Shown piece after piece: positions 22,399 through 37,839 of a DNA stretch of 64,000 bases. Below the pieces are notes generated by a model. That model saw nothing but the letters and a program-made list of their open reading frames with translations, had not been told where the DNA came from and did not search any database. The position numbers and the translations under genes were made by a program. How positions within the stretch are numbered: position 1 is the stretch's first letter; each line of letters begins with the position of its first letter. The DNA lies in the IMG/VR virus record IMGVR_UViG_2737471993_000002; one strand, 5' to 3'. Source of the stretch: a virus. Lineage: Duplodnaviria > Heunggongvirae > Uroviricota > Caudoviricetes.

Positions 22399-22734
22399 AT
22401 GGAGGAAAACATGTCGAACGAGATGGCGGGCGTTACAACAGAGCAAGTTGAGCGTATTGCCGCGATCGTTGCTCGGGAGGTTGTTGGCAAATTAGGTAAA
22501 GAGCTACGTGAAGAAATTGGCCAGGAGGTCAATGATCAGCTGAAAACCTACTTTGGTGATATGACCCCGGCGCAACATAGTATTCAACACTCCAATCTGG
22601 ACAAACTCCTTAACCGGTTAGATTCCATCTCAAGTGGGTTCTTTGGCGGCATTGTTTCTAAAATAACGTCGTTCATTATTACCGCACTGCTTTTGGGGTT
22701 AGCCGCGTATGGCGTAAAAAGTGGACTGCAATAA
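22399..22734 (+). CDS. tail-anchored membrane protein, possible holin
   Basis: 111 aa with a single C-terminal TM helix (ITSFIITALLLGLAAYGV); first gene of an operon after the fibre gene. Holin call is positional only. Confidence 0.35.
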   Translation: MEENMSNEMAGVTTEQVERIAAIVAREVVGKLGKELREEIGQEVNDQLKTYFGDMTPAQHSIQHSNLDKLLNRLDSISSGFFGGIVSKITSFIITALLLGLAAYGVKSGLQ

Positions 22735-23440
22735 CAGGAGATCAAGGATGAAGACTCCGAGAGGCATTCGTAATAATAACCCCGGTAATCTTGATAAAGG
22801 ATCACCGTGGCAAGGTCTGGTTGCGAATCCAGACGAACCGCGCTTTTGCACGTTTAAAGACCCTGTTTGGGGGATTCGTGCGCTGGCGGTGACTCTAATT
22901 ACCTACCACGACAAACGTCGCGCAAAAGACGGCTCAAGTATCGATACCATTCGTGAAGTTATTGAACGTTGGGCACCGCCGAATGAAAACAACACTGACG
23001 CCTACATTAATGAGGTGTCTAAAGCCGTTGGTGTAACCGCAGACATGATCATCGATCTGCATGATTACGACATCCTTCGACCTTTGGTTGAGGCAATCAT
23101 TCGCCACGAGAATGGTCGAGGTCCACTAAAAACGCTGAACACCTGGTATGCGGCAGAAGTTATTGAGGAAGGTCTGCGTCGAGCTGGCGTCGTTAAGCCG
23201 GTGAAAACCGTGAAGGCTGTTCCTGTAACTAAAGAAACCGCTGGCGCAACTGTTACAGCAGGTATTGGTCTGGCGCAGCTGGCCGATGTTATGCCGCAGG
23301 TTTCCGCTGCTATGGATAAAGCACAAGGTCATATCTCTAGCGGGGATACAGTACGCATCATCTTCGGTATTGCCACTATTGTTGTGGCTGGATTTATCGC
23401 CTGGTCGCAGGTAAGAAGACACCAGAAAGGGATGGTCTAA
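22721..23440 (+). CDS. putative cell-wall hydrolase (endolysin-like) with C-terminal membrane anchor
   Basis: 239 aa with GIRNNNPGNL near the N-terminus and a C-terminal TM helix. Placed in a lysis-like cassette by position; enzymatic class not established. Confidence 0.35.
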   Translation: MDCNNRRSRMKTPRGIRNNNPGNLDKGSPWQGLVANPDEPRFCTFKDPVWGIRALAVTLITYHDKRRAKDGSSIDTIREVIERWAPPNENNTDAYINEVSKAVGVTADMIIDLHDYDILRPLVEAIIRHENGRGPLKTLNTWYAAEVIEEGLRRAGVVKPVKTVKAVPVTKETAGATVTAGIGLAQLADVMPQVSAAMDKAQGHISSGDTVRIIFGIATIVVAGFIAWSQVRRHQKGMV

Positions 23441-23441
23441 T

Positions 23442-23693
23442 ATGCTAGGCAGCCTGATGACAAAGCTAAAAGTTGCTTTGATTACGCTGGCTGCCGTTCT
23501 TTTCGTTCTTGTCGGCGCTTACACGATGGGCGGAAATGCGGCGCGACGAGCAATGGAAGAGAAGGCAAAACAGGAAGACAGAAAACGACTTCAAAGCACA
23601 GTGGATGTCAAAAATGAAACGGTTAATGAAGTGCGGCAAAAAGATGCCTCTGGTGTTCATCGCGAGCTGCTTGATAAATGGGTGCGTGATTAA
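23442..23693 (+). CDS. putative i-spanin (Rz-like)
   Basis: 83 aa, N-terminal TM helix followed by a charged, helical periplasmic region. Confidence 0.4.
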   Translation: MLGSLMTKLKVALITLAAVLFVLVGAYTMGGNAARRAMEEKAKQEDRKRLQSTVDVKNETVNEVRQKDASGVHRELLDKWVRD

Positions 23694-23841
23694 GACGCAG
23701 GCTCCAGGCGTGCTATTCTGCGATGCTGCAAATCCTATCTATGTGAGTAGAGAGGATTTTATGACTGAGGAAACGGAGCGACAGTTGCTTATCCACAATA
23801 CGATAGGTGAAAGGCTGTGTGAGTGGGGGCACCTGAACTGA
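23614..23841 (+). CDS. putative o-spanin (Rz1-like lipoprotein) in an overlapping frame
   Basis: +1-frame ORF overlapping the Rz-like gene; internal start MKRLMKCGKKMPLVFIASC gives a lipobox-like IASC, followed by a Pro-containing segment. Start codon uncertain. Confidence 0.3.
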   Translation: MKRLMKCGKKMPLVFIASCLINGCVIKTQAPGVLFCDAANPIYVSREDFMTEETERQLLIHNTIGERLCEWGHLN

Positions 23842-26432: not shown

Positions 26433-28136
26433 TTGATACTAATGGAATCGATAGAATCATTTCTAAAAAATTTTCTAGTTTCAGATCATCGGGTTGCCGT
26501 CATAAAAGGAGATTGGGGCGTTGGTAAAACTCATTATTGGAATAGTTTTTATACTAAGCATTCTGAAGGATTAGATTTTAATGCATATTCGTATGTTTCT
26601 TTGTTTGGGGTTAACTCTATTGGTGATATTAAAAAAGCTCTTTATCATTGTGCCACACCAATTAATGAAAAGAAATATAAAGAACTAATTTTATCTGAAA
26701 CGGATCGAACTATGATTCGTTATAGAAATGGGTTTTTGGGATGGTTGAAATACAACTCCTTGTCAAAATTTTTAATACATTTCGGAAAGAACGATTTTTT
26801 TGGGTTCAAAACAGATAACCTGCTGTCATCTCTTGAGTATAAATTTGTTAATAATTATTTGGTTTGTATTGATGATGTTGAAAGAAAAGGTAATTCGCTA
26901 GAAGTTAAAGAAATTATGGGGGTAATTGATGAATTGGCAAGAAGAAAAGGCTGCAAAGTTGTTCTAATTTTAAATGAAGATAATTTACATGATGAAACTG
27001 CAAAAAAACAGTTTTTAGAGTACAGAGAAAAAGTAATTGATGTCGAAATAAAATATGATCCTACGCCTGAGAAGAACTTACGTAAAGTTTTTTATGAAAC
27101 TGATTCTGATTTTCTTTTGTTAAAAGTCTTAGCAAATGACTTAGGCATTAAAAATATCCGTATATTAAATAAAATAAAAACATCTCTGGTTAATCTTAGG
27201 AATGAGCTAAGCTTGGCAGAGGATAAGGTTAGAGAAAGTTTTATCAATAGATTGGTTCTGTTTTCAGTGGTTTACTATTCTGGTGTTCCAGGTGTTGATT
27301 ATGCCTTGTTTAAAGAATCAATTAAAAACATACATGTATTTGATTACATGTTAGATGATAAAAAGGATGATTCTGTATATTCATTTATTAATAGTCTTGA
27401 TATTATTTATGAACGAGCGGAAATTGCTTTCGATGATGACATAGATTTTTATCTCAAGAATGGTTATCTTTCTACTGAAAGCAATATTCGAGGTATAATA
27501 GAAGAAAAAAATAAACAATATAAAGAACACAAGGCTTTATGTGAGGTTAACAATGTTTGGGATATTTTTAGTGACTCATTCAAGGACAATGAATCTGAGT
27601 TTATTTCTAAGATAAAATGTGTAATTAACGACAATCTTTCACACATACCTGTTGCTCACTTCATAGGCTTGATTGATATCTTAAATAGATTGGAGATTGA
27701 TTGTGATAGTTATATAGAGGCATATGCAGATGCCTTTGTTAGCCAAGATGATGCTTATACTGCTTTTCGGAATTTGTATGTAGAGATATTTGGTAACGAA
27801 AAGTTAGGTCTGCTAATTCAAAAAAAATTGATGGATAAGAAGCCTGAAGAGACTAATTTAGAGAATGTTTTATACAAAATAATTGAAGGCAAATTTAATC
27901 ATAGTGACATAGCATATCTTAACAGTTTCTCTGAAGATGATTATTTAAAGTGGATATTATCCCGCAATCAGGATGCTTTGGATTTAGTGAGAAAGGGGTT
28001 GCTCAGATTCAAAAGTATGCAAGAACTAACAGAAGAACAGCAAAAAATCACGAATAAAGCAATAGGTGCATTAACGAAACTGGCCTCTAGATCAAGTCTT
28101 AACAAACTACGTGTGAGCAGATTGCTTAATAATTAA
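26433..28136 (+). CDS. KAP-family P-loop NTPase (AT-rich cargo gene)
   Basis: Walker A GDWGVGKTH and Walker B LVCIDDVER fit the KAP family. The gene is visibly more AT-rich than flanking backbone genes. Confidence 0.6.
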   Translation: MILMESIESFLKNFLVSDHRVAVIKGDWGVGKTHYWNSFYTKHSEGLDFNAYSYVSLFGVNSIGDIKKALYHCATPINEKKYKELILSETDRTMIRYRNGFLGWLKYNSLSKFLIHFGKNDFFGFKTDNLLSSLEYKFVNNYLVCIDDVERKGNSLEVKEIMGVIDELARRKGCKVVLILNEDNLHDETAKKQFLEYREKVIDVEIKYDPTPEKNLRKVFYETDSDFLLLKVLANDLGIKNIRILNKIKTSLVNLRNELSLAEDKVRESFINRLVLFSVVYYSGVPGVDYALFKESIKNIHVFDYMLDDKKDDSVYSFINSLDIIYERAEIAFDDDIDFYLKNGYLSTESNIRGIIEEKNKQYKEHKALCEVNNVWDIFSDSFKDNESEFISKIKCVINDNLSHIPVAHFIGLIDILNRLEIDCDSYIEAYADAFVSQDDAYTAFRNLYVEIFGNEKLGLLIQKKLMDKKPEETNLENVLYKIIEGKFNHSDIAYLNSFSEDDYLKWILSRNQDALDLVRKGLLRFKSMQELTEEQQKITNKAIGALTKLASRSSLNKLRVSRLLNN

Positions 28137-28305
28137 GTATTCATGACCTGTTTCTGTATATAAATAATAAGTAACTTATTAAATATACGGAAGCAGGTCT
28201 TTCAAAAGATACCCACCAGAACAACTCCCTTCCGTTTCCACTTCCAAAAACTGCCACCAATCGCTATCATCAGCTCATTGTGATAAGTAAGTAACTACCT
28301 ACCAG

Positions 28306-30520: not shown

Positions 30521-31702
30521 ATGAGCCTTTATGTTATATCAACATTTAGGTTGGTCACAATATTGCCTGTTAAAAGTGGAATTATCGTGAGCGAGCTGAA
30601 AGAGCTAATTGCCGAATTAGATTTTGAACAATGGTTGGATACTGAAGGTATCGTTTATCGACGTGGAGGCGTGAGTGCTCGCGGTCGTGAAGTGAATATC
30701 AAAGAGTGTCCGGTATGCGGCAGCTCCAACTGGAAGGTATATTTCAATCTGACCAGTGGCGTCGGTAAATGCTTCGCTGGTGATCATCCCGAAGAGATTC
30801 AGTTCAATAAGCTGGTCTTCCTCAAGCACTACAGCGGCAAATCACGACGACAGTTCGAGGAATATGTGCAGAACGCCCTTCTTTCCCAGGGGTGGGCACC
30901 AAAGAAAGAAGAGCTAGTGCTTGCAAGCACAGTCGAGTTAGAGGGGCCAGTTGCACTCCCTCGTCATTACGAGCTTCCTATAGATGGCCGTCTTCCAGAC
31001 TATCTGGTTGAACGAAACATATCACCTGAAATGGCAAAGTATTTTGACCTACGATACTGCGTCGAAGGCAAGCACGCTTATGTAGATCCGTATACAGATC
31101 AGGTAAAAGGGCAGATATTCGATATGCGAATACTGATACCGGTTTACGATCTGGATGGGGTAATGAAGACATTTCAGGGACGAGACATTACCGGTACAGC
31201 AGAACGCCGCTACCTCTTTCCTATGCAGCTTCCAGCTTCAGGTAAGTTTCTCTACAACGGCCATAATGCAGTCGGCAAACAGACTGTAGTTGTCTGTGAG
31301 GGGGCGTTCGATGTTATGGGGGTTAAACGAGCTATTTTTGACGAAGAAACATTACGTGATTACGTGGAACCAATAGGAACGTTCGGGATGCATCTATCTG
31401 GTAACACCACTCAGGATGCAGAAGATCAGTTAGGCGCGTTCCTGACGCTCAAGGCGCGTGGGTTACGTAATGTGATCATGATGTGGGATAGTGAAAAGCA
31501 AGCTATACGCAACACTATGGCCGCAGCCAGGCGACTGAGCAGTATTGGTCTTAATGTGAAAATTGCATGTTTGGGCGAGGAAGGACTCGACCCCGGCGAT
31601 GCGACCCCGGGGCAGATTATCAAAGCCTACTATTGCGCAAAACCTTACTCACGACAGCTTGAACTCTTAAGCAAGGTGAAAGGCATTGCAGCACTAGTTT
31701 GA
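30521..31702 (+). CDS. DNA primase (zinc-binding plus TOPRIM)
   Basis: CPVCGS...C zinc-ribbon-like motif and acidic TOPRIM-like segment (VVCEGAFDV...MWDSE). Start placed at the ATG following the shared AGAAAAACAC leader; the track ORF starts at 30449. Confidence 0.6.
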   Translation: MSLYVISTFRLVTILPVKSGIIVSELKELIAELDFEQWLDTEGIVYRRGGVSARGREVNIKECPVCGSSNWKVYFNLTSGVGKCFAGDHPEEIQFNKLVFLKHYSGKSRRQFEEYVQNALLSQGWAPKKEELVLASTVELEGPVALPRHYELPIDGRLPDYLVERNISPEMAKYFDLRYCVEGKHAYVDPYTDQVKGQIFDMRILIPVYDLDGVMKTFQGRDITGTAERRYLFPMQLPASGKFLYNGHNAVGKQTVVVCEGAFDVMGVKRAIFDEETLRDYVEPIGTFGMHLSGNTTQDAEDQLGAFLTLKARGLRNVIMMWDSEKQAIRNTMAAARRLSSIGLNVKIACLGEEGLDPGDATPGQIIKAYYCAKPYSRQLELLSKVKGIAALV

Positions 31703-32839
31703 ACCAGTATTAGTCACATACACATTGACCGAAAATGATTTAACTTCTGTATTGAAGTTGTCAGTCATTACCGCGAGGTAGGCATTCTTGGTATCTCTGA
31801 ATTGCTTCAGGATGATTTGAACGTTATCGGTGCAAACAAACGAGGTAGCCAGATTGCCTCCTTTCTCTGAAAAATCCTTCAGGAAGGTGCAGTCAACTTT
31901 GCCATCATTAGCGGTGAAGGTAGCATCATCACCCTGCCAGGTAAATGTAGCGTTAACGCCCTTATCAATGGATTTAGCAATAAGTCGCTGGGTGGCGGAT
32001 TTTGTTTTGGCTTTGGAAGCCGGCGCTCGATATTTGCCGCTTTCTTTCAGTTCTGCAATGTAATCGCAGCCTCTTTTTTCTCCTTTATCGCAAGCAGTCT
32101 GATAAAGGTCGGCTGCTTTTTTATAGTCCTTTTTTACACCTTCCCCATTCTCATACATAATGCCAAGATTGGTTATGGCGTCGGCGTTTCCAAGTTCCGC
32201 TGCCTTTTTATACCACTTAACTGCTTCTGCATCATTGCGTTTAACGCCTAACCCATCATCGTATAGTATTCCTAATCCTATCATAGCTTCTGAACTGCCT
32301 TGGTCTGCCGCCTTTTTGTAATAAGTAAAAGCCTTTTTATAATTCTTTTTAACGCCTTTACCATATTGGTAATACGCCCCAAGAACTGAAGTTGCTTTAA
32401 CATACCCGGCATCAGAGGCTAGTTTGAAGTATTTAATGGCGAGTGCATGATCTACTTTACCAAGCATCCCCTTTTGATAAATAGCACCAAGATTGTTGTA
32501 GGCTCTACCTTCACGAGCATCCCCCGCAAGTTTGTAGTACTCAACAGCTTTATTTAGGTCTTTATCTACACCCTCGCCAAATGTGTACATAACTCCAAGT
32601 GCATAATATGCTACTTTATCTCCCTTTTCTGCAGCTAGATCAATCCACTTCTTGGCCTCAACTACATCCTTATCAAAACCATTGACACCATCAAAATAAT
32701 TTGTACCTAACTCACTTTGTGCTGCGGTATCCCCTGCGGTAGCGGCTTCTATCAGCGTTTGTTTATTGTCTGCGTTAACGAATCCAGAGTTAAAAAGCAA
32801 AGTTAATGCCAGCAACGATGAAGATTTTATGTATTTCAT
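31694..32839 (-). CDS. secreted Sel1-repeat protein
   Basis: Signal peptide MKYIKSSSLLALTLLFNSGFVNA, about seven Sel1-like repeats, and a ~110-aa C-terminal domain. Convergent with, and slightly overlapping, the primase 3' end. Confidence 0.65.
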   Translation of the reverse strand: MKYIKSSSLLALTLLFNSGFVNADNKQTLIEAATAGDTAAQSELGTNYFDGVNGFDKDVVEAKKWIDLAAEKGDKVAYYALGVMYTFGEGVDKDLNKAVEYYKLAGDAREGRAYNNLGAIYQKGMLGKVDHALAIKYFKLASDAGYVKATSVLGAYYQYGKGVKKNYKKAFTYYKKAADQGSSEAMIGLGILYDDGLGVKRNDAEAVKWYKKAAELGNADAITNLGIMYENGEGVKKDYKKAADLYQTACDKGEKRGCDYIAELKESGKYRAPASKAKTKSATQRLIAKSIDKGVNATFTWQGDDATFTANDGKVDCTFLKDFSEKGGNLATSFVCTDNVQIILKQFRDTKNAYLAVMTDNFNTEVKSFSVNVYVTNTGSN

Positions 32840-33071
32840 GTTTTTTTTCTGTTGATATAGGATGAACAGTTTAGACGCGGCAAGCGTCAAGTGTGCGAAA
32901 AAGGGTACTTAAATTTAGTTAATATGTCAGCTTTGTTGATTTAGTTTATGGTCGGTAAAGTTACTGGGAAACTAATAACCATAAGAAATAGTACGCCATT
33001 TAATTATTGTGGCACTGCTCGTGTTTTGATTAACTAATACCTGCGATAAATATAAATAAAGGGAAGCCAAC

Positions 33072-33485
33072 ATGAGCAAAAATAAGCTGATTTTAACAGG
33101 AGCTTTATTGTCTTTGTTTGCTTTAGTGGGGTGTAAGCCTACAGACGAGAAGGCTATTGCTCTGGGCCAACAAGCAATTGCGGATGATATGAAAGATCCC
33201 ACGTCGGTGATGTTTAGGAAAGATAAGTTTGTCAGGACTGATCATGACGATGGGAGTGTGACAGGCTTTGTGTGTGGTGAATTAAACGCCAAAAATGGCT
33301 TTGGTGCATACGTGGGCTATCACTCATATGTTGTTGAACTCGAAATGAAGCCAAAGGGCATGTTTTCAAAAGGGGTGGTATACAAAATCCTATCGAAGTC
33401 GTTGGCACCTAATGATCCTCATGATTTACAGCGTTATAAGCAGGTCTACAGAAAGATGTGCAACAGTGAGGCTGTAGCTCATTAA
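33072..33485 (+). CDS. putative lipoprotein
   Basis: Signal peptide with lipobox LVGC; 137 aa. Confidence 0.5.
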   Translation: MSKNKLILTGALLSLFALVGCKPTDEKAIALGQQAIADDMKDPTSVMFRKDKFVRTDHDDGSVTGFVCGELNAKNGFGAYVGYHSYVVELEMKPKGMFSKGVVYKILSKSLAPNDPHDLQRYKQVYRKMCNSEAVAH

Positions 33486-33610
33486 AGGTGAATGCTGGGC
33501 TGAGGATATGCCCGGCATCTTAGTATAAACAACTATTGCACCTAAAATGATAAGTAGATACATACTTAAGTTTTTGTAAGAATACTTTCATCCGTTAGCT
33601 AGGAGTTGGT

Positions 33611-34460: not shown

Positions 34461-34931
34461 GTGAAAGCTGATTTGTCAAAAGTCCCTTCTATTTCAGGAA
34501 ATAACGGTTATTCACTTCGTTGTGAGGAAGTAAAGATAAACGGTGAGTCGGCATATTGCAGCTACTCCGTTTGCCAGCACACCATTCTTGCCTTCAAAGA
34601 AAACCGTCTTCCTCGAACGTCTTTCCAGTCGTGCGCAACCGCTATTAAAGCAGGCAAATGCAAGGCGTTAAAAATGATGGTTGAAGAGATTCGTAAAGGA
34701 GAATCTCTGTATTTCGAAGATATGACCGCACTCATTAAGGAGGTTGAAGAACGGAATAAACAAGCCAGAACTATAAAACGAAAACGTGACAGTGTAACGA
34801 TTAATAGCATGGTTAAGAAGAGCGCCACATCACAAACAGCGATCACTGACGTGTATGCGGCGTTGATTGAAGAAACAACAAAAGAAACACATGAGCAAAT
34901 CGATCAACATATGGAGGCAAAACAACAATGA
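34461..34931 (+). CDS. hypothetical protein (GTG start)
   Basis: 156-aa ORF overlapping the ligase start. Confidence 0.4.
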   Translation: MKADLSKVPSISGNNGYSLRCEEVKINGESAYCSYSVCQHTILAFKENRLPRTSFQSCATAIKAGKCKALKMMVEEIRKGESLYFEDMTALIKEVEERNKQARTIKRKRDSVTINSMVKKSATSQTAITDVYAALIEETTKETHEQIDQHMEAKQQ

Positions 34932-36250
34932 AAAAGTTGATCGCACTTAAGCATAAGCTGGACGAAATGAAAGCTATGGGAACCAATGCAAAAAAAGAGG
35001 CATTGGCCAACATGGATGACTTTGAACAAAGCATGGTTTCATTGATGCTCAACCCTTTCATCCGTTTTGGGGTAAAGAAATACAAAGTGGCAGAGCCGCT
35101 TAGTGAGTCCGTCCCAAGTGACGAAAAAGCCATTGATGTACTGAATAAGCTGGCCTCTCGCGAGCTGACGGGGAACGCAGCAATAGCTGCTGTTGAGTCT
35201 ATCGTGGCGTCAATGTGCGCCGATGGGCAGGACGTGTTCCGTCGTTTCCTCTTAAAAGACCCGAAAGCGGGTGTTGGGATTAGCCTATGCAACAAGGTTT
35301 TTGAAAATCCCATTCCGAAATTCGAGGTGCAGCTGGCGTCACCGTATAAAGAAAAAGGCGACAAATACCCCTTCAAGCCAAACCCTAAAGCAAAATGGCC
35401 GATGATTGGCAGTCTTAAGCTCGATGGTTTGCGAGTAATTTGCGAGGTTATTGTTGACGAGGAAGAGGTTAACTTCCTTTCTCGTACTGGTAATCCAATC
35501 ACGTCTCTCGATCACCTAAAGCCAGCAATGCTCGAATTAGGCAAACTTTCAGGCCACAAACACATCTTCTTCGATGGTGAAGGAACAGCCGGTTCATTTA
35601 ACCAGTCCGTATCTGCATTGCGCAAAAAGAACGTGCAGGCAATTGGCGCTATTTATCATGTTTTCGACTTCTTCCTACCGGAATGGCGAGCACAGGCTAA
35701 ATCCAAAGAGTATGCAAAGACATGTATGAAGCTGAAAGAGCGCCTGGCTATGCTCGTGGCGTTGTTCAAAAACGATCGCAGTGAAGGCTACGCACAAGAC
35801 ATTCACCTGCATCCGTTCTACATCATCCATAGCCACGAAGACTTCATCGAACGCTTCATGAAACGCCTGGACGATAACGAAGAAGGGGAGATGGGCAAAG
35901 ATCCGAACTCTGTTTACGAGTTTAAACGTACCCGCAGCTGGTGGAAGTTAAAAGACGAAGATTCAGAAGATGGTGAAATTATCGATTTTGAGCCGGGCGA
36001 CCCGGACTCTGGTTTTGCCAACACGCTTGGAAAAATTGTTATTCGTCTTGAAAACGGCGTCATCGTTCGTGCGAGCGGCATTAAGCATAAATATCTGGAC
36101 GAGATCTGGAACAACAAAGAGAAGTACCGTGGTCGTATTGTCGAGGTTCATTGTCACGAGAAAACACCGGACGGCAGCTTACGCCACCCACGACTGAAAT
36201 GGCCGCGTTGCTTACGCGATACAGAAGATCGAATCGGAGATAAAGAATGA
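34928..36250 (+). CDS. ATP-dependent DNA ligase
   Basis: Adenylation motif I KLDGLR (KxDGxR) within a 440-aa protein. Confidence 0.6.
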   Translation: MKKLIALKHKLDEMKAMGTNAKKEALANMDDFEQSMVSLMLNPFIRFGVKKYKVAEPLSESVPSDEKAIDVLNKLASRELTGNAAIAAVESIVASMCADGQDVFRRFLLKDPKAGVGISLCNKVFENPIPKFEVQLASPYKEKGDKYPFKPNPKAKWPMIGSLKLDGLRVICEVIVDEEEVNFLSRTGNPITSLDHLKPAMLELGKLSGHKHIFFDGEGTAGSFNQSVSALRKKNVQAIGAIYHVFDFFLPEWRAQAKSKEYAKTCMKLKERLAMLVALFKNDRSEGYAQDIHLHPFYIIHSHEDFIERFMKRLDDNEEGEMGKDPNSVYEFKRTRSWWKLKDEDSEDGEIIDFEPGDPDSGFANTLGKIVIRLENGVIVRASGIKHKYLDEIWNNKEKYRGRIVEVHCHEKTPDGSLRHPRLKWPRCLRDTEDRIGDKE

Positions 36251-36426
36251 TGCTCGGCTGGATGATTGCATTTTTAGCGGTTGGTTTTTTAATCGGTATT
36301 GTGGTGATGTCCAGTTGCATCAATGACTACATTAAAAGCGGTGTTATAGAACGACGCGGTCGTATTTATCGCATTGTAGAAATAACCCACACAGTGAAGG
36401 AGATTAAGGATGATCGTATTAAGTAA
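36247..36426 (+). CDS. small membrane protein (59 aa, below the ORF-track size cutoff)
   Basis: ATG overlaps the ligase stop; one TM helix then GRIYRIVEITHTVKE; paralogous to 36622..36774. Confidence 0.35.
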   Translation: MMLGWMIAFLAVGFLIGIVVMSSCINDYIKSGVIERRGRIYRIVEITHTVKEIKDDRIK

Positions 36427-36625
36427 GCGGGAGAAGGAAACGCTTCATGAAATCAGTAAGTGGTCAGAGTTCCCTGAGTACTGGAAGCCTAAAACGCGGG
36501 CTAAGTTAGAGCGGTTAGGGTTGGTTGCAAACGTTTCTGAAACGAAGTGTTCGGCCAACTACCAGTTAACTGATAAAGGGAAAGTATTGCTACAGCAATT
36601 AGTAGAATCAGGAGTGTTAAAATGA
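36410..36625 (+). CDS. hypothetical small protein
   Basis: 71-aa ORF lying between the two paralogous small membrane protein genes. Confidence 0.3.
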   Translation: MIVLSKREKETLHEISKWSEFPEYWKPKTRAKLERLGLVANVSETKCSANYQLTDKGKVLLQQLVESGVLK

Positions 36626-36774
36626 TTCCATACATCTCATTAGCTTTTATGAGTGGCTTCCTTATCGGCTTCGGCATCTGTCGTGATTTAATTAAGCAGG
36701 AACTTAAAACCAAAACACTGTGCATCGGAAAGCGTGTGTATCGGGTAGTTCATGAAACAAAGGTTAGAAAATGA
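36622..36774 (+). CDS. small membrane protein (50 aa), paralogue of 36247..36426
   Basis: TM helix (FMSGFLIGFGI) then GKRVYRVVHETKVRK, mirroring the first small protein. Confidence 0.35.
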   Translation: MIPYISLAFMSGFLIGFGICRDLIKQELKTKTLCIGKRVYRVVHETKVRK

Positions 36775-37061
36775 GCAATTTAACTTCTTGGGACTGGTGG
36801 TTGGCCACCTATTGCTTAGCGGCCGGAGTCGCATTCGCCTTTTACGTAGGTCAGTTAGTCGTAAAACTGTTGCTGATTAAATTTGCTAGTCATAAACGTA
36901 TCGATGATGGTCTGTGGCGTCTTGGCACCCTGGTGGAAACTCGCTACGGGCAACTTAAGGAGAACGAAACCATTACTATCCAAGCGAAACGATTCACTGC
37001 CACCATCACAAGAACACCTAGTCGTAGAGTGGCCTTGATCAAAAAAGTCACAACCGAATAA
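36771..37061 (+). CDS. small membrane protein (96 aa)
   Basis: N-terminal TM helix; start overlaps the preceding stop. Confidence 0.35.
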   Translation: MSNLTSWDWWLATYCLAAGVAFAFYVGQLVVKLLLIKFASHKRIDDGLWRLGTLVETRYGQLKENETITIQAKRFTATITRTPSRRVALIKKVTTE

Positions 37062-37451
37062 AAACACAATAATAAGTATTTACTTACTTATCTTTTATGT
37101 ATAAGATGACTTTGTTTTCGTTGAGACGCGACTGTTTGAACTTAAATACAAGTGCAAACGAAGAAGTCTATCTGGCAGTAGCCTAATAAGCCAAACACCA
37201 GCGAGGTCAGTTTCCAGCCTCGTTACCGAAATGGGACACACTGAGCGAGTGTGATTGCAGAACGCAGGAGGGAACATGAGTGTTCCCTCCGATGAAGTAA
37301 CAGAATGGGCGGTCGGTATATTTTCAACTCCATATGACTCCCGGATTCTTAGCCTCTGACCGCCCATCCTGTTACGTCATTTTGTTCAATTATGTCGTTT
37401 ATACTGGGTTAAAAAGCGGCGACGTAGCCCGGCTGGTATGGTTAGCCAGCA

Positions 37452-37573
37452 CACAACGTTGAGGCCATTACATTTTTATCAATTCTAAGGTTCTATTCAC
37501 AGAGATACCGGCGAGCGTTGATATGTAACATGTTGGGCAAACATTCAATCGGAGTAGTGGCCTCAACGTTGTG
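37452..37573. repeat. long hairpin: 16-bp perfect inverted repeat with ~90-nt spacer
   Basis: CACAACGTTGAGGCCA at 37452-37467 and its exact reverse complement at 37558-37573; the spacer contains further small palindromes. Confidence 0.6.
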
Positions 37574-37839
37574 AAGACAGGATTGTTGTGTAGGTTTAAC
37601 CACTGTTGCCATTGGTGCCTGTTTTCACAACAAATGATTCCATACATCACATTGTATAAATTACAAAGTAGGTGCTGTCCTCAGAAACATCATCTACTTA
37701 AAGATTTTGCCTTCTACTATTGAGCGAAGTCGAAAGCGTCTGGCACTAACGAAAAGTGCAAGTAGCGGTGCGTTTCCTGGCAGAAACTAAACCGTCGCGA
37801 TTGGCACTGTTGAGTAATAAATACTGGCAGTGCCGAATT

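Follow-up and report, generated by a model that had tools for sequence, protein, structure and literature searches.

The cluster of small genes directly downstream of an ATP-dependent DNA ligase gene in a 64,000-nucleotide stretch of viral DNA (IMG/VR record IMGVR_UViG_2737471993_000002; hereafter the window) includes two genes, A and B, which on the evidence of their sequences are true and old tandem paralogues of one mini-protein family. A membrane protein of another family is encoded by gene C, and the minimal conserved unit is a single A/B-type gene in translational coupling with C, immediately 3' of the ligase. The chances are evenly balanced that the products of this unit act as a cytoplasm-facing inner-membrane module made alongside the lytic replication enzymes. 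The element that carries the cluster is an Escherichia coli phage-plasmid of the SSU5/pHCM2 type, and the region is 98.5% identical to phage Cyrano and 100% identical to plasmid CP099286.

All genes of the cluster are encoded on the plus strand. The ligase (34928..36250, 440 aa) was recognized by its open reading frame and KLDG motif, by the DNA ligase annotation in Cyrano and SSU5 and by PF01068 on orthologues. Gene A (36247..36426, 59 aa, PHROG 4381) encodes a transmembrane (TM) helix at about residues 2–25 with G13xxxG17, followed by a basic tail containing GRIYRIVEIT. Gene D (36410..36625, 71 aa, PHROG 4054), located between A and B, encodes a soluble protein that is probably a winged helix-turn-helix (wHTH). 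Gene B (36622..36774, 50 aa, PHROG 6302) encodes a TM helix at about residues 2–20 with G12xxxG16 and a very basic tail containing GKRVYRVVHET. Gene C (36771..37061, 96 aa, PHROG 4507) encodes an N-terminal TM helix at about residues 9–31, a basic amphipathic helix and a predicted beta-hairpin. The four genes A-D-B-C form a chain of overlapping genes 3' of the ligase gene: the ligase stop and the A start have an ATGA in common, D starts 17 nt ahead of the A stop, and ATGA overlaps occur at both the D/B and the B/C junctions. Each start is preceded at 7 nt by a Shine-Dalgarno-like motif (GGAG, AGGAG, AGGAG and AAGG for A, D, B and C). An earlier note on this DNA had described each start as overlapping the previous stop, which is real once D is counted, but the note had overlooked D, the wHTH-like gene between the paralogues. 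It had also described A and B as missed by the list of open reading frames; they are indeed absent from that list, but merely because of its 60-aa cutoff.

The cluster is best read as the tail end of a lytic replication operon that includes helicase, primase, two unknowns and the ATP-dependent ligase. A simple scan detected no promoter-like site on either strand between 36000 and 37100, and the only terminator-like site listed in the cluster is a 5-bp hairpin on the plus strand inside C (36796-36809), which is not convincing. A tRNA array begins at 37840, 780 nt 3' of the cluster. The argument from tRNA proximity in the earlier note is not supported, because the genes are part of the replication/ligase operon and not of the tRNA island, and an RNA gene with an apparent promoter of its own lies between. 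Annotation of the cluster is uneven among relatives. All four genes are annotated in SSU5, A is absent from the annotation of phage Cyrano, and B is lacking in two PLSDB plasmid gene tables, which are incomplete.

Judged by selection on their codons, A, B and C are genuine conserved genes. Against diverged orthologues, dN/dS was 0.10–0.19 for A, 0.16–0.21 for B and 0.09–0.11 for C at dS of about 0.9–2; for D, dN was 0.24–0.31 with dS saturated. Intact orthologues of these genes are found in 478–670 plasmids. The coordinates, lengths and sequences claimed earlier for A, B and C were accurate, and with dN/dS of 0.09–0.21 all three are real genes. It is highly improbable that the short reading frames are not functional proteins and owe their conservation to constraints on DNA or RNA, such as the 15-nt motif at the B start. 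Codons 1–5 of B do fall on that conserved DNA motif, and seven lineages agree there in their choice of synonymous codons. Beyond those five codons, however, substitution at synonymous sites approaches saturation although the protein stays conserved (dN/dS 0.1–0.2), and on the basis of dN/dS and the codon comparison the motif was rejected as the cause of B conservation for everything past them. Furthermore, the distant relative L010 retains the peptide xIPY using other codons, and the numerous intact orthologues and the good Shine-Dalgarno motif at each gene also speak for proteins.

The motif itself, AATGATTCCATACATCTCAT (36621..36640, plus strand), overlaps B codons 1–5 (MIPYI). This polar 15-nt motif is present in five copies in the window against 0.14 expected. 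The codons ATT CCA TAC ATC at the start of B are identical in seven diverged lineages, for which other parts of these genes show dS of about 1 or higher. The polar DNA motif (AATGATTCCATACATC) converges on a palindrome adjoining the integrase gene (40527-41630), beside which a repressor gene is located at 41625-42011.

The relationship between A and B was examined at several levels. In a single BLASTP comparison, A and B were 33% identical over 45 aa (E 1e-5). Their Smith-Waterman score was 56, compared with 21.8 +/- 4.3 for whole-sequence shuffles (z 7.9), and a score of 56 was reached by just 0.05% of shuffles that kept the architecture of hydrophobic head and basic tail. Taken separately, the parts were weak in shuffles, with p 0.055 for the tails and p 0.019 for the TM segments. 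Profile comparison by hhalign of 26 A-type against 21 B-type sequences gave a probability of 82% and an E of 1e-5 over 49 gapless columns. In a joint MAFFT alignment of 20 sequences the shared core was gapless, A being longer than B at both ends; G13, G17, R39, Y41, R42 and T47 were invariant in both families, and K30 and K51 were at least 90% conserved. Both families carry in register the signature of a TM helix with G-x3-G followed by K...R-x-Y-R-[IV]-[VI]-x-x-T. An exhaustive profile search recovered the intermediates P0110 and P0115, the latter combining a B-like MIPYI... N-terminus with an A-like RVYRVVEIT tail, and a joint A/B profile recovered A at 98 bits and B at 91 bits. In the relative L022, A and B stand directly in tandem and D is absent. 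The homology of A and B is settled by these bridging sequences together with the direct A-B tandem.

The two proteins had been called clear paralogues in the earlier note. The paralogy holds on family evidence, but "clear" was too strong for the pairwise case. Alignment, a check which that note had asked for, left the similarity of A and B intact and gapless in the shared core and placed C as unrelated to them; C was rejected as a third paralogue with an hhalign probability of 0.3% and shuffle p of 0.4–0.5 against A/B. Proteins A (E 7.9e-39, 1-59/59) and B (E 3e-36, 1-50/50) match phrog_4381 and phrog_6302, respectively. These two PHROGs are catalogued separately, and the bridging members show them to be, at the level of sequence, one family.

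The presence of one N-terminal hydrophobic helix in each of A, B and C, followed by a basic tail, agreed with the earlier description when hydropathy and charge were calculated. No lysine or arginine precedes the hydrophobic segment in any of the three, and the net charge of the tail is +3, +7 and +8, respectively. Because basic residues are absent before the helix and present after it, the proteins are suggested to be N-out/C-in with cytoplasmic tails; just 1–8 residues per protein are predicted to lie outside the cytoplasm. On a simple Hessa-scale sum, B (+2.2 kcal/mol) and C (+2.0 kcal/mol) are marginal, and the Kyte-Doolittle criterion is passed at 1.8–2.0. The invariant R-x-Y-R-[IV]-V core of the approximately 30-residue A/B tail has the periodicity of a basic amphipathic helix, the helical hydrophobic moment of the tail motif, muH(100 degrees), being 0.63 for A and 0.92 for B. 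AF2 modelled A (joint alignment) as one long helix with pLDDT of ~80–90 in the TM third, ~72 at residues 21–30 and ~59 in the tail. The model of C has a helix at 6–59 and strands at 67–71 and 76–80 at low confidence (mean pLDDT 63), the TM helix alone being confident.

The arrangement of the genes is strongly conserved. Almost every relative examined has an A/B-type gene directly 3' of the ligase, and almost every distant one examined has the minimal unit of an A/B-type gene and C there. Wherever a distant relative possesses a ligase gene, the stop codon of that gene overlaps or adjoins a member of the A/B family, and C follows the B-type gene in nearly all intact variants. Among the IMG/VR loci the dominant order is LIG-A-D-B-C, and B-C is retained in all of the variants LIG-D-B-C, LIG-B-C and LIGfragment-B-C. 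The A-D-B-C order is retained in the distant L010, D is missing from some distant relatives, and L008 and L020 have a single A/B-type gene with C. Searches of PLSDB recovered A in 532, B in 682 and C in 653 records. The corresponding numbers were 139, 218 and 218 in Escherichia, 49, 49 and 48 in Salmonella, and 43, 43 and 43 in Yersinia. Gene A is thus dispensable and often lost, for example from about one third of E. coli plasmids. The small genes remain after loss or truncation of the ligase in L019 and in Yersinia pestis pMT1, so that the position behind the ligase could be operon inheritance and not a functional link.

Published transcript data exist for E. coli lysogenic for Cyrano, the 98.5%-identical relative, in which D, B and C correspond to CYRAN_37-39. 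The data do not cover A because it is unannotated in Cyrano. In overnight LB cultures of LF82(Cyrano), the RNA-seq values were 5.9 for the ligase, 6.4 for D, 5.0 for B and 7.6 for C, in a dataset where the median for the prophage is 9.8 and the cutoff for morons is 49 (PMC9928086 S1 Table). These genes are at or below the prophage background and are thus silent in the lysogen. Under non-LB conditions, D, B and C had about 3–4 times the ligase signal (PMC9928086 S1 Table), which hints that they may have some independent transcription. The silence in the lysogen argues against a prophage-expressed exclusion function, and A, B and C are probably cytoplasm-facing and not lysogenic-conversion genes. 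Beyond the LF82/Cyrano lysogen RNA-seq, a literature search on small membrane proteins of SSU5, pHCM2 and pMT1, on induction transcriptomes and on the DNA motif yielded nothing relevant.

The earlier note had proposed exclusion factors, small toxins or lysis modulators, a guess left unsupported by a lysis cassette located elsewhere, the lack of any functional family match and the silence of D, B and C in the lysogen. T4 Imm and Sp, P22 SieA and SieB, and HK97 gp15 are, like A, B and C, small phage-encoded inner-membrane proteins, but there is no similarity between them, and A, B and C are predicted to expose hardly any residues to the periplasm. Temperate phages express their exclusion genes from the prophage; the A-C cluster, by contrast, is silent in the lysogen. 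Exclusion confined to lytic growth, in which DNA entry of a second phage would be blocked in the manner of T4 Imm, is an improbable reading. It would suit small membrane proteins, the varying presence of A among strains and the variable accessory region that adjoins the cluster. However, unlike the exclusion genes of temperate phages the cluster is not expressed from the plasmid-prophage, and proteins with nearly all of their predicted mass in the cytoplasm have little with which to meet incoming DNA or a periplasmic injection machinery. Moreover, A, B and C matched no defence or exclusion family in PADLOC and no functional PHROG, and the A and B tails are under purifying selection with low diversity and not under arms-race diversification.

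A role as small membrane toxins or modulators of lysis timing, either depolarisers like Hok and TisB or antiholin-like proteins, is very unlikely. The type I toxins Hok/Gef, TisB, Ldr and Ibs resemble these proteins in having about 50 aa and one hydrophobic helix, and C has a match, although an insignificant one, to a holin family (phrog_2359, E 0.13). Type I toxins are as a rule encoded at loci of their own, each with an antisense RNA, whereas A, B and C are embedded in an ATGA-coupled operon in which neither strand offers a promoter-like site, as scanned above. The C-terminus of Hok is periplasmic; the basic tails of A, B and C are predicted to be cytoplasmic. No match to Hok (PF01848) was obtained at E <= 1, none to holin or toxin families at E <= 0.1, and no holin match in Pfam or NCBIfam. 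In Cyrano the holin, endolysin, Rz and Rz1 genes occupy 26739-28157, corresponding to ~22400-23830 of the window, which places a canonical holin-endolysin-Rz/Rz1 cassette about 13 kb upstream of the cluster, in the late region.

Searches for families of known function were equally negative. No homologue of known function was found for A, B or C among Pfam, NCBIfam, PADLOC, PHROGs and the PDB, and PDB profile searches with A/B, C and D returned nothing significant. Proteins C (E 5e-58) and D (E 6e-45) match phrog_4507 and phrog_4054 over their full length, and PHROGs 4381, 6302, 4507 and 4054 are all catalogued as of unknown function. The RefSeq name of C, "C-type natriuretic protein", was rejected as a propagated label, there being no match to a natriuretic-peptide family in Pfam or NCBIfam. 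The wHTH assignment of D, which is annotated as a putative transcriptional regulator in Cyrano, draws on sub-threshold matches at residues ~30–66 to the Csa3 wHTH (E 5e-4), SSO5209 (E 0.007), EarA (E 0.055), HTH_45 (E 0.06), and TubR and PA1607 (E ~0.5).

Rather unlikely, too, is an early-lytic host takeover, in which the small proteins would bind a host protein in or at the inner membrane and inhibit it, and so arrest the host during replication. The target might be the division machinery, as for lambda Kil or Caulobacter SidA and DidA, or a transporter, as for modulators of the AcrZ type. Phage division inhibitors usually sit with early replication and recombination genes, and so do these genes, which are silent in the lysogen. 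Their products are small, span the membrane once through a helix bearing G-x3-G, and carry a basic amphipathic motif that is predicted to be cytoplasmic. AcrZ, MgrB, SidA and DidA of Caulobacter, and lambda Kil belong to the same size class with one TM helix and an expected helix-helix action (G-x3-G), but they are not homologous, and their genes belong to host stress regulons or to lambda pL and have no link to a ligase. A takeover role also finds no sequence or profile similarity to such families, and it leaves unexplained both the strict linkage to the ligase and the free loss of A.

In the preferred reading, that of a cytoplasm-facing inner-membrane module, an A/B-type protein and C would assemble through their TM helices into a small inner-membrane complex, made solely in lytic growth while the replication genes are on. 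The basic tails would work at the cytoplasmic face of the membrane, where the likeliest job would be to tether phage DNA replication or repair, or D as a small, putatively DNA-binding protein; the second likeliest would be to alter a host inner-membrane protein. Formation of this putative complex we infer solely from the conserved adjacency and overlap of the genes, and the topology, timing of expression and target assigned to the module are likewise deductions. One comparison is with phi29, whose p16.7 and p1 are membrane anchors of Bacillus phage DNA replication. Like the products of the present cluster, they are small, early and encoded among replication genes, each having a single hydrophobic stretch in the membrane and a portion in the cytoplasm. 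There is, however, no sequence similarity, and p16.7 has 130 aa and contains a defined dimer domain that binds DNA, whereas the tails of A, B and C have 30–65 aa and the host is Gram-negative. A more specific proposal, made by analogy and improbable as a whole, is that an A/B-type protein and C, with the help of D in most lineages, form an inner-membrane tether for replication and ligation of the ~110-kb phage-plasmid, a Gram-negative counterpart of phi29 p16.7/p1, with the 15-nt motif acting as its handle on the DNA or as the switch that controls its expression.

The 780 nt downstream of C hold an unannotated tmRNA-like RNA resembling a tag template, with a putative tag of ...ANEEVYLAVA, which is more interesting than the cluster itself. 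This RNA, common to the phage-plasmids, P22-like phages and Felix O1-like phages, separates the cluster from the tRNA island and apparently has its own promoter. ARAGORN at default settings did not call it, nor did Rfam in 6.5 kb of sequence, whether at the gathering cutoff or at E <= 1; it comes to light only when the search windows are small or the thresholds are lowered. No tRNA-like domain was found in it. A "permuted tmRNA" call by ARAGORN at the 70% threshold begins inside gene C, and its tRNA-like part is regarded as spurious.

Small membrane proteins without a known function are ubiquitous in phages, and the cluster as such is an unremarkable finding; the neighbouring tmRNA-like RNA and polar motif matter more. 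Among clinical E. coli, Klebsiella, Salmonella Typhi and Yersinia pestis, phage-plasmids of the SSU5/pHCM2/pMT1 type are common, and four of their most constantly placed small genes have had no assigned function and uneven annotation. What is gained is the merging of two "unknown" families into one, the definition of a minimal unit, and the turning of a hypothetical block into a testable three-gene deletion.

The region carrying the small membrane-protein genes shares 98.5% identity with Escherichia phage Cyrano, which is the SSU5-like phage-plasmid carried by E. coli LF82, and 79% with Salmonella phage SSU5. A 901-nt cluster query had 100% identity to E. coli plasmid CP099286 and matched 751 PLSDB plasmids, whose hosts are Klebsiella, Escherichia, Enterobacter, Salmonella, Yersinia pestis (pMT1), and Citrobacter. 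These matches identify the element as an SSU5/pHCM2/pMT1-type phage-plasmid. On the plus strand, the gene of a 440-aa ATP-dependent DNA ligase (34928-36250) is followed by A (36247-36426, 59 aa), D (36410-36625, 71 aa), B (36622-36774, 50 aa), and C (36771-37061, 96 aa), and is preceded on the same strand by helicase and primase genes and two genes of unknown function. The ligase/A, D/B, and B/C overlaps are all ATGA and the A/D overlap is 17 nt, so that ligase-A-D-B-C is a continuous overlapping chain once D is counted. Shine-Dalgarno-like motifs are found 7 nt 5' of each start (A, GGAG; D and B, AGGAG; C, AAGG). The earlier note had placed A, B, and C exactly, and the start/stop overlaps that it described hold for the chain including D, a gene absent from that note.

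Comparison of A, B, and C with their orthologues from SSU5, pMT1, and Klebsiella gave dS of 0.9-2.0, which is near or at saturation, and dN of 0.12-0.20. The corresponding dN/dS was 0.10-0.19 for A, 0.16-0.21 for B, and 0.09-0.11 for C, and these ratios reject the reading that the ORFs are conserved at the DNA level alone. For D, dN was 0.24-0.31 and dS was saturated. All four proteins have full-length PHROG matches (A, 4381; D, 4054; B, 6302; C, 4507), each to a family of unknown function, and searches of Pfam, NCBIfam, and PADLOC with A, B, and C returned no significant match. A, D, B, and C are real genes, under selection and translationally coupled, and their products belong to catalogued unknown-function families; those of A, B, and C are small phage membrane proteins. 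RefSeq and PGAP records commonly give C the name 'C-type natriuretic protein'; because no family in Pfam or NCBIfam supports the label, it looks like a propagated mis-annotation.

The proposal that A and B are paralogues has been borne out. BLASTP aligns them with 33% identity over 45 residues (E 1e-5), and their local alignment score lies 7.9 sd over whole-sequence shuffles. Against shuffles that randomise the hydrophobic head and the basic tail each within itself, the score still ranks in the top 0.05%; the halves taken singly are weak (p 0.019 and 0.055). The pairwise evidence is thus moderate, and the evidence at the family level is decisive. Profile-profile alignment of 26 A-type with 21 B-type proteins covered 49 gapless columns (probability 82%, E 1e-5), and a joint MAFFT alignment had no internal gap, with the top-conserved positions of both families coinciding at G13/G17 (a helix G-x3-G), K30, R39, Y41, R42, T47, and K51. 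When 1.84 billion representatives were searched exhaustively by HMMER, the joint profile recovered 25 proteins in all. One of them, P0115 (MMIPYIILG...RRRVYRVVEITEK), is a bridge that joins a B-type head to an A-type tail, and P0110, P0109, P0119, P0120, and P0121 are further bridging proteins. On a distant contig of ~112 kb, presumably a related phage-plasmid (L022), an A-type and a B-type gene stand directly in tandem after the ligase; another locus (L010) retains the order A-D-B-C despite far greater divergence, and two others (L008 and L020) have one A/B-family gene followed by a C-type gene. Together, the profile alignment, the bridging proteins, and the tandem and variant loci show that A and B are old tandem duplicates of one family, which PHROGs splits into two. 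Of the three proteins for which an alignment had been suggested, A and B are therefore homologous and C is unrelated, its kinship to A/B being rejected by an hhalign probability of 0.3%.

Natural variants of the cluster have been found. Searches of PLSDB by tblastn gave 532 records for A, 682 for B, and 653 for C. The three genes travel jointly in Salmonella (49/49/48 records for A/B/C), Yersinia (43/43/43), and Enterobacter (86/89/90), whereas Escherichia has 139 records of A versus 218 each of B and C; the Klebsiella records number 178, 241, and 210. In one locus (L003), A is cleanly deleted and the ligase gene runs directly into D. K. pneumoniae plasmid NZ_CP129731 (L006, 1303-1551) has lost most of the ligase, A, and D through an in-frame fusion of 82 aa, which joins the first ~70 ligase codons to the last D codons and spares both B and C; two IMG/VR loci carry this fusion too. 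Another locus (L007) has A-D intact, B truncated, and C replaced. Among IMG/VR loci, ligase-A-D-B-C is the commonest arrangement and B-C is kept in most variants; in two loci with ligase-A-D-B, C was undetected. Frameshifted copies of A and B exist among the cluster representatives, and in Y. pestis pMT1 the ligase gene is truncated by IS100 with all four small genes kept. D is present in most, not all, lineages. From these deletions and architectures it follows that the constant core is one A/B-type gene and C after the ligase; both A and D are dispensable.

Residues 2-20 of A are strongly hydrophobic (Hessa-type sum -2.5 kcal/mol), and the N-terminal segments of B and C are moderately so (+2.2 and +2.0, with Kyte-Doolittle 19-residue means of 1.8-2.0). 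No K or R precedes the hydrophobic segment in A, B, or C, and the tails are net positive, at +3, +7, and +8, respectively. With this charge distribution, the positive-inside rule predicts an N-out/C-in topology with cytoplasmic tails for all three. The shared tail motif G-[KR]-R-[VI]-Y-R-[VI]-V has an alpha-helical hydrophobic moment of 0.92 in B and 0.63 in A, and therefore the periodicity of a basic amphipathic helix. The structural half of the previous interpretation, namely paralogy and a hydrophobic N-terminal segment with a basic tail, was correct. AlphaFold2 has modeled A as a single long helix with good confidence over the TM helix only (10-residue block means of 80, 90, 72, 59, 60, and 58), and C as a helix (6-59) and a beta-hairpin (67-80) with a mean pLDDT of 63; the confidence of both models is below use for fold searching. 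No relatives of A/B or C were found in a PDB search. D is soluble and has several independent sub-threshold matches to winged-helix domains (Csa3, HTH_45, EarA, and TubR).

The only transcript data found are for LF82 carrying Cyrano (PMC9928086, S1 Table) and cover the ligase, D, B, and C, A being unannotated in Cyrano. Normalised counts in overnight LB were 5.9 for the ligase, 6.4 for D, 5.0 (the floor) for B, and 7.6 for C, against a prophage median of 9.8 and the authors' cutoff of 49 for 'morons' expressed in lysogeny (PMC9928086). The cluster, as covered by D, B, and C, is silent in the lysogen, and is therefore not a lysogenic-conversion locus. In the other four conditions (columns B1, B6, MB1, and MB6), log2 values for D, B, and C were ~5.3-6.3 versus 3.9-4.3 for the ligase (PMC9928086). 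This rise of ~3-4-fold above the ligase hints at some independent transcription from a weak internal promoter upstream of D. The holin, endolysin, Rz, and Rz1 of Cyrano map to ~22.4-23.8 kb, 13 kb from the cluster. Silence in the lysogen and the distance from the lysis genes leave the functions first guessed (exclusion factor, toxin, or lysis modulator) unsupported, and both Imm-like exclusion, now to be placed in lytic growth, and toxicity or lysis modulation are weakened. The preferred reading, which is by analogy, is that the proteins tether or organise replication and repair, or D, at the membrane. A, D, B, and C would be expressed with the replication genes during lytic growth, an A/B-type protein and C would assemble via their helices, as the G-x3-G, the constant adjacency, and the gene overlap suggest, and the proteins would act on the cytoplasmic face of the inner membrane. 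Such a module would resemble phi29 p16.7/p1 by role, not by sequence. Besides the two weakened readings, a further rival to a tether is that these small proteins inhibit division or a host membrane protein.

The first five codons of B (ATG ATT CCA TAC ATC) are one copy of a 15-nt motif, AATGATTCCATACAT(C), found five times in the window versus 0.14 expected. Single copies lie at the start of B (36621) and 1012 nt downstream (37633), two form a 33-nt palindrome (40396-40428; 13-7-13, AATGATTCCATAC-CTACTAT-GTATGGAATCATT) located 99 nt upstream of the integrase gene (40527-41630), and one is inside the Pol III alpha gene (46445, minus strand); a degenerate copy is inside the integrase gene, ~720 nt from the palindrome. 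The 12-nt core ATGATTCCATAC has exactly five exact copies in the 108-kb Cyrano genome, all inside 9.2 kb, and no further one-mismatch variants in that whole genome. In 114 IMG/VR contigs, the palindrome arms are exact, the 7-nt spacer has at least nine forms, and the single copies are nearly all oriented toward the palindrome from either side (four exceptions). In seven lineages with dS of ~1 or more elsewhere in these genes, the copy at the start of B is written with the same synonymous codons. The motif resembles a protein-binding DNA site, for which D is an obvious candidate binder; it could be a scattered asymmetric operator, as for P1 C1, or a set of recombinase sites. A literature search on the motif found nothing.

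Directly after C, within the 780 nt between C and the tRNAs, is a tmRNA-like RNA (37079-37390, plus strand). Its tag-like frame at 37154-37189 (GCA AAC GAA GAA GTC TAT CTG GCA GTA GCC TAA TAA) reads ANEEVYLAVA and two stops, compared with ANDENYALAA in the E. coli SsrA tag. A promoter-like TTTACT-N17-TAAGAT (37079-37107) precedes the frame, and a covarying hairpin and pseudoknot follow it, with more conserved hairpins to ~37390 (MFE z-score -5.5). The 778-nt query matched 317 INPHARED phage records, among them homologous stretches of ~110 nt that are 74-77% identical. Homologues occur in the HK620 late leader (between qut and tQ), Felix O1-like tRNA arrays, other siphophages, and >120 IMG/VR contigs. 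In the Felix O1-like Citrobacter phage Michonne, the copy lies within the tRNA array, follows a TTGACA-N17-TAAGAT promoter, and stops 2-3 nt short of tRNA-Arg. In a set of 80 unique copies, the tag takes the form AN[DE]xx[YF]LAVA, with codon changes consistent with the frame. In 53 copies of HK620 and Felix type, five paired variants of the hairpin stem occur and the stem is paired in 52, the loop-to-downstream pairing is CCGA/UCGG, CCAA/UUGG, or CCAG/CUGG, and the third helix is CAC/GUG, UAC/GUA, CAU/AUG, or CAG/CUG; pseudoknot and third helix are paired in all 53. Rfam models match the tag region only, far under threshold (tmRNA_permuted, 15-20 bits; beta_tmRNA, 14; tmRNA, 11). ARAGORN called the window copy at the 70% threshold only, as 'tmRNAp' with tag ANEEVYLAVA and both stops, and its single default-threshold call among the loci compared was a 749-nt 'tmRNA*'. 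No convincing tRNA-like domain was found in the RNA. Since an 'ssrA' called by ARAGORN appears in genome announcements for Felix O1 and Moogle, the element is not wholly new in those phages; it is unannotated in SSU5-type and HK620-type genomes.

A second, strongly structured non-coding piece (37440-37590) has 20-nt inverted arms (CACAACGTTGAGGCC...) 82 nt apart (z -4.7), and a related inverted repeat (CACAGCGTTGAGCGG...) is found just 3' of tRNA-Ser (38400-38477); the two may serve in processing or termination within the RNA island. Two stretches, 37916-40378 and 31661-33550, are missing or different in Cyrano. The former is a variable accessory region that begins directly behind the first tRNA (tRNA-Asn) and stops 18 nt short of the palindrome, and here it holds an extra tRNA-Tyr and a 444-aa ORF (38593-39927, minus strand); the cargo in relatives is AbiH, the Y. 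pestis caf1 (F1 capsule) operon, or a porphyrin-biosynthesis-like gene. Overall, the membrane genes are of modest interest, and the flanking tmRNA-like RNA and the DNA motif merit separate study.
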